Positions 51,080 through 53,630 of a stretch of 64,000 nucleotides of DNA are shown here, piece by piece (within the stretch, counting starts at the first letter, position 1; the number at the start of each line of letters is the position of its first letter). The stretch is taken from NCBI RefSeq assembly GCF_013315695.1, contig NZ_CP054353.1. One strand, 5' to 3'. Origin of the DNA: Escherichia coli. Lineage in GTDB: Bacteria > Pseudomonadota > Gammaproteobacteria > Enterobacterales > Enterobacteriaceae. Under the pieces are notes generated by a model, which worked only from the letters and a program-made list of their open reading frames with translations, did no database searches and had not been told where the DNA came from. The position numbers and the translations under genes are program-made.

Positions 51080-51541
51080 ATGGAACTAAAATTTATTGAT
51101 AACCCTGTGCGATTACAGGCCTTTCTTAACGAGCCAGGCAATACCGAAAATATTGTTGAGCCGGGGCACACGTACTACATCAAGCCTGATGCGGTATATC
51201 TCGGCATCTACGAAGGATTAGTGCTGGCTGGCGTTCATGAAGTGCGTAACTTCTGGCATAGCGTTGTTGAATGCCATGCGGTGTACGACCCCGGATTCCG
51301 TGGTGAATATGCACTGCAAGGACATCGATTATTCTGCAAATGGCTTCTCGAAAACTCACCATTCCTTAACAGCATTACCATGGTTCCTGACACCACGAAA
51401 TACGGACGGGCAATTATCCGTTTGCTTGGCGCTACCCGTGTTGGTCATCTTGATGATGCTTATATCAGATGTGGTAAACCCGTCGGCGTAACGCTTTATC
51501 AGTTAACTCGGCAACAATATAAGGAATTCAGCGAATGTTAA
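51080..51541 (+). CDS. Hypothetical protein (candidate virion-associated protein)
   Basis: 153 aa; first of three tightly coupled same-strand genes. Confidence 0.4.
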   Translation: MELKFIDNPVRLQAFLNEPGNTENIVEPGHTYYIKPDAVYLGIYEGLVLAGVHEVRNFWHSVVECHAVYDPGFRGEYALQGHRLFCKWLLENSPFLNSITMVPDTTKYGRAIIRLLGATRVGHLDDAYIRCGKPVGVTLYQLTRQQYKEFSEC

Positions 51542-52212
51542 TTACCCATATAGCTTATAAACATCTCAATCGTGCCGTATACGAAAAAGGCGGTGATGGT
51601 GGTGCCTCTAAAGCTCAGGCGAAGGCCCAGCAGCAGGCAATTGATTTGCAGCGCGAGCAGTGGAATACGGTGATGAATAATCTCAAGCCGTATGCAGAAG
51701 TCGGATTGCCTGCTTTACAACAACTACAAGGACTGATGACTCTGGAAGGGCAGAATAAAGCCGCGAATGATTTCTTTGGTTCTGGTTTATATAAAACACA
51801 GGCAGATCAGGCCCGTTATCAGAACCTTGTCTCAGCAGAAGCTACCGGGGGGCTTGGCTCAACAGCTACCAGTAACCAGTTATCTTCCATTGCGCCCATG
51901 CTTTATAACAATTGGCTCAGTGGGCAAATGCAAAATTATGGAAACCTGCTAAATGTCGGGATGAATGCGGCATCAGGGCAGGCAACAGCAGGGCAAAACT
52001 ACGCCAATAATACCGGACAACTCTTGCAGGGGCTTGGCGCTATTCGTGCAGGTCAGGCGCAGCAGCCATCCAGTCTTGCGCGTGGTATTGGTGGGGCGGC
52101 ATCAGGCGCTTTAGCGGGTGCGCAACTTGGTTCCGTTGTTCCGGGTATAGGTAATGTCGCCGGGGCTATTGGTGGTGGGCTTATTGGTCTTGTTGGGGGG
52201 CTTGGATTCTAA
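51535..52212 (+). CDS. Hypothetical protein with Gly-rich hydrophobic C-terminus (candidate phage ejection/internal protein)
   Basis: 225 aa; Gln/Asn-rich middle, C-terminal GxxxG-rich tail (GIGNVAGAIGGGLIGLVGGLGF). Confidence 0.4.
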   Translation: MLITHIAYKHLNRAVYEKGGDGGASKAQAKAQQQAIDLQREQWNTVMNNLKPYAEVGLPALQQLQGLMTLEGQNKAANDFFGSGLYKTQADQARYQNLVSAEATGGLGSTATSNQLSSIAPMLYNNWLSGQMQNYGNLLNVGMNAASGQATAGQNYANNTGQLLQGLGAIRAGQAQQPSSLARGIGGAASGALAGAQLGSVVPGIGNVAGAIGGGLIGLVGGLGF

Positions 52213-53630
52213 TGGCGACATGGCAACTTGGCGGGCTGCCTAGCATGGCACCGCAAAATGATAATGCTCCTCGTTCTTCCGTTCCTCAGCCTGTGCAGTA
52301 TCAGCAGCAGCCAAACGTAGGTTTAATGGCGCTACAGGGGCTAAGAGGCGTTGCTGAGATTAATCAGCAGGCACGTCAACAACAGCGTAAAGCAGAGTTT
52401 CAGAAAGCATATGCCGGGGCTTTTGAGTCTGGAGACAGAAACAAAATGCGCAGTCTTATTTCTGAGTATCCAGAAGAATTTGAAAGCGTTCAGAAAGGGA
52501 TGGGCTTTATTGATGACGACCAGAGAAATTCTATTGGTCATCTTGCGACTAGTGCTCAAATCGCATCTTCGCTCGGAACTGGGGCATTTGGAAAATTCAT
52601 AGCAGATAACGAAGATGAAATGCGTCGTTTGGGAATTTCTCCTGAGTCTGTTGCCGAAATGCATGTTAATGATCCACAGGGATTCCAGCGGCTTGCTGGT
52701 AGTATGGCACTGTTTTCTCTCGGTCATGAGAAGTACTTCGATATCAAAGATCGAATGGAAGGTCGGGATATTGAGCGTGGCAAGTTGGCAGAGACGATCC
52801 GCAGCAATCAAGCCGGAGAAGCACTTCAGGCGAGAGGGCAGGATATTAGCCGAGCAAATGCGTTAACGTCAGCATATGCACCAACAGCCGCAATGCAGAA
52901 TTACAATCAATACGCGCAAATGTTAAAGGCGGATCCAGAGGGGGCTGCGGCATTTGCGGCAGCGGCTGGAATTAATACAAACGCCAAAAAATTAATGAGT
53001 GTTAGAGAAAACGATGATGGCACTGTCACAAAATACTACACAGACGGAAGTGAAGAGCAGGGAAAACTAAACCAGCCAATATCTGGAGATGGGTTTCGTC
53101 CAATAGCTTTGCCAACAGCCCAAAAGATCATGGAAAAGTCGCCAGAAGGGGCTAAAAAAGCTGCTGGATTTGCATACAGAGTTAGGGATGCTCTTGATTC
53201 AATAGATACACTGAAAGACCAGCTTAGCCCACAGCGAGTGGCGATCATTAATAATGCTTTGGGTAATGGGACGCTGGCTAACTTAACGCTCAGCCCAACA
53301 GAGCAGCAATACGTTGTTAATGCTAATGACGCAATAATGGCAATACTCCGTCAGGAAACAGGGGCATCTATCCTACCAGCTGAAATGTCCAAATATTATC
53401 AAATGTATTTCCCTCAGCCTGGTGATTCCACAAAAACCATTGATACCAAGCGTAGGAAGATGGAAAACCAGTTCAATTCGCTGAAAGCTGCTTCTGGTCG
53501 AGCTTATGATGCTTTGCGGGTTATTTCAGCAGTTGACAGAGGAACTTCTTCTTCGTCGCAGACATTGCCGCAATCTGAGCAGGTATCACAGCCAGCAGTA
53601 ATTTTTCTTCACTATGGGGTGATTAGGTAA
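52212..53630 (+). CDS. Hypothetical protein (candidate phage ejection/internal protein); 3-prime end runs into IS1
   Basis: 472-aa ORF whose last codons and stop lie inside the IS1 terminal repeat (IS1 begins 53626). Confidence 0.4.
   Translation: MATWQLGGLPSMAPQNDNAPRSSVPQPVQYQQQPNVGLMALQGLRGVAEINQQARQQQRKAEFQKAYAGAFESGDRNKMRSLISEYPEEFESVQKGMGFIDDDQRNSIGHLATSAQIASSLGTGAFGKFIADNEDEMRRLGISPESVAEMHVNDPQGFQRLAGSMALFSLGHEKYFDIKDRMEGRDIERGKLAETIRSNQAGEALQARGQDISRANALTSAYAPTAAMQNYNQYAQMLKADPEGAAAFAAAAGINTNAKKLMSVRENDDGTVTKYYTDGSEEQGKLNQPISGDGFRPIALPTAQKIMEKSPEGAKKAAGFAYRVRDALDSIDTLKDQLSPQRVAIINNALGNGTLANLTLSPTEQQYVVNANDAIMAILRQETGASILPAEMSKYYQMYFPQPGDSTKTIDTKRRKMENQFNSLKAASGRAYDALRVISAVDRGTSSSSQTLPQSEQVSQPAVIFLHYGVIR

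Follow-up and report, generated by a model that had tools for sequence, protein, structure and literature searches.

The window analyzed here is a 64,000-nucleotide (nt) stretch of an Escherichia coli genome (contig NZ_CP054353.1 of assembly GCF_013315695.1) that is 100% identical to E. coli MSB1_4I. At positions 51080-53630 it encodes three coupled genes homologous to genes 14, 7, and 20 of phage P22. This cassette is the Late zone of a phage-inducible chromosomal island (PICI) at thrW that resembles EcCIMP1, the PICI of E. coli MP1 (Pick, Stadel & Raivio, ISME J 2025; PMC11773190). The three genes, with protein lengths in amino acids (aa), are:

51080-51541, + strand, gp14-like (DUF2824) gene, 153 aa; the P22 homolog is annotated 'head morphogenesis'
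51535-52212, + strand, gp7-like ejection protein gene, 225 aa
52212-53630, + strand, gp20-like ejection protein gene, 472 aa; frameshifted near 53589, with a stop codon from IS1

The original prediction, made from the letters of this stretch alone, had described three coupled genes of 153, 225, and 472 aa reminiscent of the 14-7-20 ejection-protein block of P22-like phages. The genes are present where it placed them, and their overlaps confirm the coupling: the end of the gp14-like gene and the start of the gp7-like gene share 7 nt (ATGTTAA), and the gp7-like stop and gp20-like start are joined in TAATG. The 153-aa protein matched phrog_651 ('head morphogenesis', E = 1e-66) and Pfam DUF2824 (1.7e-61), the 225-aa protein matched phrog_598 ('DNA ejection', 2e-69) and Pfam P22_gp7 (2.4e-72, residues 16-223), and the 472-aa protein matched phrog_917 ('released from the phage upon host infection', 5e-110, residues 1-444) and Pfam Inj_translocase ('DNA/protein translocase of phage P22 injectosome', 4.7e-58, residues 34-213). 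These strong PHROG and Pfam matches indicate that the three open reading frames (ORFs) are not chance ORFs and, with the order of the P22 genes, they establish that the likeness noticed earlier is real homology in a conserved arrangement. In tblastn searches of 50,697 phage records, phage matches of the cassette proteins were solely to the corresponding genes of P22-like phages. By BLASTP, the gp14-like protein is 84% identical to Kapi1_055 of the P22-like phage Kapi1 (82-85% to E. coli P22-like phages including Kapi1) and 23% identical to P22 gp14, while the gp7-like protein is 57% identical to its Kapi1 counterpart and 56% to that of P22. The gp20-like protein is 34% identical to Kapi1 and 38% to P22, in both cases along the N-terminal ~200-240 residues (the N-terminal half) only; its best phage relative is P33 of APSE (53%), and its C-terminal half resembles APSE P33 alone.

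In the alignment with P22 gp7, the gp7-like protein keeps an N-terminal '..E-KGG' region, a AEATGGLGSTAT core that is invariant, and a hydrophobic, Gly-rich C-terminus; the last of these is the tail of the second protein that had been pointed out in the original prediction. The N-terminal kept segment surrounds the gp7 processing site given in the annotation of the P22 record. The gp14-like protein, as modeled by AlphaFold (AF2; pLDDT 92.6), folds like a GNAT acetyltransferase, with SpeG acetyltransferases as matches (TM 0.78, Foldseek E 3e-9), and the canonical acetyl-CoA motif is recognizable only in part; from this model, a GNAT fold is predicted with confidence for the DUF2824/gp14 family. 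Searches of PDB sequences with each of the three proteins returned chance matches only (E of 0.07 or worse), and an NCBIfam search of the cassette gave no match. On the evidence of the matches above, the identification of the three ORFs as true homologs of P22 gp14, gp7, and gp20 is secure.

What follows gp20 where IS1 is absent is seen in E. coli strain 789. Its island begins with thrW, integrase, an AlpA-type helix-turn-helix (HTH) protein, a hypothetical protein, AntA/AntB, DUF4222, 'ash', six small genes, and a TOPRIM/DUF927 primase; next come a 53-aa gene, DUF2824, gp7-like, gp20-like (473 aa), and a 701-aa protein, and the island ends with a reverse-strand 204-aa protein, a reverse-strand HTH protein, and PerC. 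The 701-aa protein, encoded directly after gp20, is a gp16 homolog (phrog_770 'DNA transfer protein', 4e-160; 30% identity to P22 gp16 over 483 residues). In the P22 record the order is 14 (151 aa), 7 (229 aa), 20 (471 aa), and 16 (609 aa), followed by sieA on the reverse strand, and in the intact island it is DUF2824 (153 aa), gp7-like (225 aa), gp20-like (473 aa), and gp16-like (701 aa), followed by the reverse-strand 204-aa SieA homolog. The P22-type succession of gp16 directly after gp20 is thus found in intact relatives and not in the window, where IS1 follows gp20. The cassette also does not stand, as in P22-type phages, after a tail-needle gene 26 in a virion-assembly operon; a primase and the 53-aa gene precede it.

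The ends of the strain-789 island are marked by the att core TCCTATTATC, whose two copies lie 18,024 bp apart and enclose the cassette. The same core flanks EcCIMP1 at thrW (PMC11773190). EcCIMP1 excises only when Kapi1 is present, and Kapi1 transduces it as one unit (PMC11773190); re-examination of the MP1 locus confirmed the EcCIMP1 architecture, cassette included. In the window TCCTATTATC occurs once (attL), such that no element bounded by direct repeats is found within it, and the second att core of this genome lies on the opposite strand ~18 kb beyond IS1. The original prediction had left a choice between a fused prophage remnant and virion-protein genes encoded by a satellite; the second of these holds and the first does not, as att repeats enclose the cassette and the arrangement recurs elsewhere.

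A remnant of an independent P22-like prophage, integrated or decayed beside a satellite, is contradicted by these observations and deserves almost no credence. Such remnants do exist: in E. coli O157:H7 TR01 (locus L007, argW/intS) a true P22-like prophage remnant beside intS/argW consists of a needle fragment, DUF2824, gp7, and gp20. Remnants of this type are widespread in O157:H7, and part of the DUF2824 gene is 97% nucleotide-identical to the window gene. The cassette, on the other hand, lies within att repeats, shows the same junction at different chromosomal sites and in different genera, and moves with the island in experiments (PMC11773190). Moreover, no homolog of portal, coat, needle, or tailspike was found in 54 related islands, which were recovered from ~30 Enterobacterales genera by scanning one genome per species with the primase as query.

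It had also been predicted that the three genes are cut at the 3' end by IS1. An IS1 element is present there:

53626-54393, - strand, IS1 copy A, 768 bp, flanked by GGGTGATTA (53617-53625, gp20 side) and GAATAAACG (54394-54402)
57129-57896, identical direct copy of IS1

The gene that IS1 cuts off, however, is the gp16-like one. The strain-789 sequence GATTAATGG contains both the gp20 stop and the overlapping gp16 start, a TAATG junction, and in the window IS1 follows GGGGTGATTA exactly at that junction. The third gene itself is essentially full length (462 of 473 residues in frame, 99% identical to strain 789); its altered last 10 residues stem from a separate 7-bp deletion of one CAGCCAG repeat unit at ~53589, which frameshifts the last 11 gp20 codons, after which the ORF ends at a TAA from IS1. 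The 9-bp GGGTGATTA recurs beside a third, inverted IS1 copy that lies outside the window, ~24 kb away in this genome. Immediately after this distant GGGTGATTA comes the ATG of the intact gp16-like gene (701 aa; 99% identity to strain 789), which is followed by the 204-aa gene, PerC, and the opposite-strand att core. The second 9-bp duplication, GAATAAACG, is likewise split between the same two inverted IS1 copies. An inversion between IS1 copies has carried this end of the island away. In the simplest history, IS1 inserted twice, each time duplicating a 9-bp target, and the inverted copies then recombined, which flipped ~23.5 kb and broke the island in two. Since attL and attR are now in inverted orientation relative to each other, normal excision would not be expected, and the window element is an IS1-broken copy that is probably immobile. 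The IS1 junction was found in this genome only among 5,426 E. coli genomes. The direct IS1 copies (53626-57896) bracket an NADH:flavin oxidoreductase gene fragment, ykgR, ykgM, and ykgO; the second copy truncates ecpC, and the ecpC-yagU block is inverted relative to strain 789.

Upstream of the cassette, the island in the window consists of the following parts:

40784-40859, + strand, tRNA-Thr gene (thrW; ARAGORN), whose 3' end holds the attL core TCCTATTATC (40843-40852), the left island boundary
41025-42239, + strand, tyrosine integrase gene (Integration zone; PGAP annotation mapped from locus L002, and the strain-789 ortholog matches the PHROG integrase)
42891-43094, + strand, AlpA-type HTH regulator gene (annotation)
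43538-44371, + strand, AntA/AntB antirepressor-family protein gene (Bro zone; ORF list and annotation)
44921-44998, + strand, isrK-like leader (Rfam RF01394, 67.8 bits), inside an 'ash family' ORF
45061-45148, + strand, C4/CI-type antisense immunity RNA (Rfam RF01695, 79.9 bits), inside the same ORF
47567-50326, + strand, Zn-ribbon/TOPRIM/DUF927 primase gene (Replication zone; PHROG DNA primase, 2e-178; PGAP annotation)
50327-50901, + strand, intergenic region with a terminator-like hairpin (50783-50806) and a good ribosome-binding site (RBS) before the next gene
50902-51063, + strand, 53-aa gene heading the Late zone, with a strong RBS, 16 nt upstream of the gp14-like gene

The Integration, Bro (with C4 and isrK RNAs), Replication, and Late zones are thus all present and in that order, and the window shows the inward-facing integrase and AlpA at one end, beside a tRNA att site, that characterize PICIs. 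The AlpA-type regulator is the master regulator in EcCIMP1, a function demonstrated for the MP1 ortholog (PMC11773190). A promoter scan detected no consensus sigma-70 promoter upstream of the Late zone, and a short-word BLAST detected no late-promoter or qut-like sequence common to the primase/Late intergenic region and Kapi1 or P22. GGTTCA/TGAACCAAC iterons are clustered at ~50350-50460, immediately 3' of the primase gene, and resemble origin or crr-type repeats. A ~35-nt motif (containing GCGTGACGTT) and a 22-nt motif (AGTTTTnnGAGTCCATAAAAAA) are common to the Bro zone upstream of isrK and the intergenic region before the Late zone, at ~44785-44870, ~50520-50590, and ~50726-50747 of the window (L001 11976-12071, 17721-17790, and 17926-17947); the two may be common regulatory sites.

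Homologs of the 53-aa gene were found by tblastn downstream of the primase in 26 of the 54 related islands, and gene calls place a 53-aa gene there in the islands of Citrobacter and Kluyvera as well. The protein had no Pfam or PHROG match, and its AF2 model consists of an extended N-terminus and two helices. An assignment to Arc/Mnt-like ribbon-helix-helix regulators was considered and dropped: only the strand-helix-helix topology of the model is compatible with it, hhalign against an Arc/Mnt alignment gave a probability of 1%, and Foldseek returned no significant PDB fold match (E >6).

Between the AntA/AntB gene and the isrK-like leader lies a further feature that bears on how the island might be packaged:

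44688-44794, - strand, copy of a segment of P22 terS (gene 3) starting at pac, 107 nt

This segment is identical to nt 268-374 of P22 gene 3 at 94 of 107 positions (88%, E 2e-36), and the first 22 bp of that P22 stretch are the pac site. Read as its reverse complement, 44773-44794 gives a pac-like 22-mer that matches P22 pac at 16/22 positions. Every E. coli island copy has the whole 107-nt segment. The Citrobacter and Kluyvera islands with a cassette of ejection proteins (E-proteins) kept only the 28-mer with the pac-like part (44767-44794 in the window; 26/28), at a different place, and a second copy in these islands matches P22 pac at 19/22 positions. A match of at least 21/28 to the 28-mer was found in none of six relatives of the tape-measure type described below and not in the divergent Lelliottia locus L052. 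We infer that the segment is a candidate satellite packaging site for helpers with a P22-type small terminase. The long 355-aa 'ash family protein' ORF overlaps the antisense of the segment with its N-terminal part; because of this overlap and the isrK and C4 RNAs inside it, that ORF is probably spurious in part.

The EcCIMP1 authors suggested a role in satellite DNA packaging for EcCIMP1_017-019 (PMC11773190), and such a role for the cassette genes would fit their position downstream of the primase, which is where other PICIs keep packaging genes, and the 'head morphogenesis' label of DUF2824/phrog_651. The homologs of these proteins are, though, described as internal virion proteins required for infectivity that form a delivery conduit, rather than as packaging factors (PMC8954989, PMC8402733, PMC10461980), and the pac/terS-derived segment at 44688-44794 is a better candidate for packaging specificity. 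A packaging function of the cassette is considered very improbable.

Of 5,426 complete E. coli genomes, 239 have the junction of primase, 53-aa gene, and DUF2824 gene. A gp20 allele at least 95% identical to that of the window was found in 304 E. coli genomes, and none of the 50,697 phage records holds it. Outside E. coli, islands of Citrobacter freundii and Kluyvera sichuanensis encode AlpA, Bro-N, ASH, primase, SSB, and PerC, and then the 53-aa gene, DUF2824, P22_gp7, Inj_translocase, and a protein with SLT and P22_gp16 domains; a similarly close DUF2824 homolog occurs in Serratia, but within a complete P22-like prophage. At the yicC-dinD site of E. coli WP2-S18-ESBL-07 (locus L006), a different integrase is followed by the same backbone, a 57-aa homolog of the small gene, and then gp20-like (488 aa, 84% identical to the window type) and gp16-like (701 aa) genes only, with no gp14 or gp7. 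In the window's genome (NZ_LR898874.1), a second locus matches the 3' end of the primase gene or the intergenic region and is probably another satellite of the same family.

Between the window and MP1 islands, gp14 and gp7 are 98-99% identical, the gp20 C-termini are unrelated, and the gp16 proteins are different. Nearest phage relatives change from gene to gene (Kapi1-type phages of E. coli for gp14; Sodalis, APSE, and P22 for gp7; APSE for gp20, at 53%; and phage N7 for gp16, at 67%), and judged by these alignments the cassette is a mosaic. The gp20 genes of the window and strain 789 differ by 15 synonymous and 2 non-synonymous changes. Ratios of non-synonymous to synonymous substitution rates (dN/dS) of E-genes among island copies were below 1 in every comparison and mostly 0.04-0.3 in informative ones, rising to ~0.4-0.6 where differences were few or gp20 alleles very divergent, and were broadly like those of the island primase (0.05-0.22). 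As read from these counts, which are small, the E-genes in islands evolve under purifying selection.

These data bear on whether the cassette could be passive cargo, that is, helper late genes captured into the Late zone and retained because they are tolerated, with no function for the satellite. It is known that helper late genes can be captured as clusters in PICI Late zones, and the knockout of one PICI capsid gene was tolerated (PMC10111431); the mosaic alleles with a different nearest phage for each gene, the L006 variant that lacks gp14 and gp7, and the decayed state of the window copy would all be compatible with passive retention. Yet hundreds of genomes, from three genera, have these ORFs in intact and coupled form, their dN/dS values are like those of the primase, and a gp20 allele carried by so many E. 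coli genomes with a best phage match of 53% points to long residence in islands and not to recent capture. Functionless cargo is accordingly regarded as unlikely.

In islands of the strain-789 type the E-genes are accompanied by a putative exclusion gene:

L009 16176-16790 (same genome, outside the window) and L001 22959-23573, reverse strand, 204-aa SieA-like gene after the gp16-like gene

The 204-aa protein has four hydrophobic segments and contains NRYPGEARRARK, which matches the published SieA motif FnRYPnEAnnFNK; its identity is 34% with type-B SieA from prophage HS1 and 29% with P22 SieA. On these similarities, this inner-membrane-type protein is a divergent SieA homolog. All sieA genes examined in a dedicated study were in P22-like prophages, and mutations that escape SieA mapped to the C-terminal regions of gp16 and gp20 (PMC10461980); these regions are the most divergent parts of the island alleles.

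An anti-phage function has been weighed in this light, in which island E-proteins would co-assemble into virions of helper or superinfecting P22-like phages, or poison their conduits, and would together with the SieA-like protein explain immunity. EcCIMP1 is reported to contribute to immunity against superinfection by Kapi1, with no known defense system detected in it (PMC11773190), the SieA homolog adjoins the cassette in the strain-789 type, and mixed conduits could fail given that the gp20 and gp16 alleles are far from those of the helper. Against this, Kapi1 titers after induction were unchanged by EcCIMP1 (PMC11773190), the MP1 island encodes a lipoprotein and not SieA at the position of the 204-aa gene, and E-proteins act from the incoming virion, such that cytoplasmic copies in a recipient would have no obvious access to a periplasmic conduit. 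Interference is considered quite improbable as the main role of the cassette.

The best explanation, to which we give somewhat better than even credence, is that the island E-proteins are loaded into hijacked helper capsids and serve as a conduit for satellite DNA. A P22-like helper phage would induce the island through AlpA, and the island would excise and then replicate with its own primase. The helper terminase would package it by a headful mechanism from the island-borne copy of the P22 pac/terS segment, while island-made E-proteins would be loaded into helper procapsids, a step that the GNAT-fold gp14-like factor, 84% identical to that of the helper, is assumed to assist. After adsorption, gp7, gp20, and gp16 would exit the capsid and form a trans-envelope conduit for satellite DNA. 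Alleles of gp20 and gp16 that are 24-26% identical to those of the known helper might free the satellite from the helper conduit, and a satellite with its own conduit might enter cells where SieA-type exclusion blocks helper E-proteins; the SieA-like protein of the island would in turn block incoming helpers. Divergence of the gp20 and gp16 alleles from those of the helper would be the adaptive point of the arrangement.

Several observations weigh against loading of island E-proteins into helper capsids. The EcCIMP1 authors left these genes functionally unassigned (PMC11773190), and their role in virions is deduced. The dN/dS values come from few substitutions, and some of the divergence may predate capture. 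The L006 variant carries gp20 and gp16 alone, so a complete E-protein set of its own is not obligatory for a satellite, and most related satellites in other genera lack E-proteins. In published tests SieA types A and B excluded phages with very different E-proteins (PMC10461980), which weakens a simple model in which a different allele escapes exclusion. Finally, the sole proven helper, Kapi1, lacks SieA, and its pac-like matches are no better than chance; a benefit from evading exclusion is for this reason not demonstrated for the pair of Kapi1 and EcCIMP1; specificity of the pac site for a P22-type terminase could account for the low transfer by Kapi1.

In some related satellites without E-proteins, the same slot holds other genes. 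In many islands with a homolog of the 53-aa gene, the next genes encode a 108-aa protein and a lone, full-length tail tape-measure protein of 857-1188 aa (for example, a match to phrog_1107 with E = 0 over residues 1-1136); other islands encode tape-measure/transglycosylase proteins of ~600 aa or an 844-aa protein of the 'injection transglycosylase' type. The slot is of the tape-measure type in loci L012, L018, L022, L023, L027, L028, L035, and L043 (and L021, L031, L033, L042, and L044). No further tail genes follow the lone tape-measure genes. Att repeats that enclose the tape-measure gene were shown for one locus, Lonsdalea L016; in other loci outside E. coli the repeats are too short or lie beyond the fetched flank. 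Tail-assembly interference (Tai) and helper-embedded PICIs were considered as readings of the lone tail genes and rejected, given that each tape-measure gene has its full length and stands without further tail genes after it.

Because tape-measure proteins and E-proteins both cross the periplasm with DNA, the Late-zone slot may be dedicated to genome-delivery proteins matched to the type of helper. A bolder extension, possible but doubtful in our estimation, is that this PICI family reserves a Late zone that is always headed by the 53-aa gene for the conduit of the helper morphotype it exploits: P22-type gp14/7/20/16 for podoviral helpers, and a lone tape-measure protein with its 108-aa partner for long-tailed ones. 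Carrying its own conduit, and a pac copy instead of a terminase gene, such a satellite would escape exclusion of the SieA and HK97 gp15 types, and its own SieA-like gene would bar helpers.

The type of element and the island family are already published, and the window copy is a further, broken member. Like EcCIMP1 (PMC11773190), the island occupies the thrW site with the same att core and has the same backbone of int, AlpA, AntA/B, DUF4222, ash, primase, and the 53-aa gene. Unlike EcCIMP1, the window and strain 789 have a gp20 allele that is 48% identical over the N-terminal 187 aa only, gp16 of the strain-789 type is 701 aa long and lacks the SLT domain of the 906-aa MP1 protein, and a SieA-like gene replaces the MP1 lipoprotein gene; the window copy is moreover split by IS1. 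The resemblance to the P22 late operon extends to gene order, sizes, coupling, Pfam families, and a downstream sieA on the opposite strand, whereas the island cassette follows a primase gene and not gene 26, and the island has no coat, portal, tail, or lysis genes. The dynamic Late zone of captured helper late genes in the four-zone plan of Gram-negative PICIs (PMC10111431) is a further likeness. That work and other PICI papers emphasize capsid and packaging genes in this zone, while here it holds a set of ejection proteins or, in relatives, a lone tape-measure gene.

The island also resembles satellite P4 in its integrase, CI/C4-type RNA immunity in an eta/ash-like gene, large alpha-type primase, and dependence on helper virions. 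It differs in that the helper of P4 is P2 and not a P22-like podovirus, and in that P4 has no virion-internal proteins and the island carries them; P4 sid, psu, and delta were not annotated in three island copies, and no such PHROG match was obtained among the scanned proteins, some small ORFs being unscanned. A functional analog is the T7 gp14/gp15/gp16 ejectosome, whose three internal proteins build a pore in the outer membrane, a tunnel through the periplasm, and a hub at the inner membrane (PMC8954989). Little recognizable sequence similarity is reported between T7 and P22 E-proteins (PMC10461980), and unlike those of T7, the P22-type proteins are smaller and have no ordered core stack (PMC8954989).

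In the usual description, satellites steal capsids and tails, and what they add is limited to regulators, capsid-size factors, or packaging adaptors. A search of open-access papers found no description of the carriage of ejection proteins, tape-measure proteins, or pac copies by Enterobacterales satellites, and three observations appear to be undescribed: a satellite with complete synteny of 14-7-20-16-sieA, its copy of pac, and the counterpart with tape-measure genes that other genera have. EcCIMP1 genes left as 'hypothetical, possibly packaging' are now re-annotated as ejection-type, and a widespread E. coli PICI family (~4% of complete genomes) is seen to carry a full ejection set, a copy of the pac region, and, in some versions, a SieA homolog. 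Questions that become testable are how pac-type satellites that lack a terminase gene get packaged, whether satellites change what hijacked virions inject, and whether E-protein alleles and exclusion genes co-evolve through satellites. If the Late zone is indeed reserved for the conduit of the exploited helper, satellites would be a reservoir and exchange platform for the diversity of ejection proteins and sieA.

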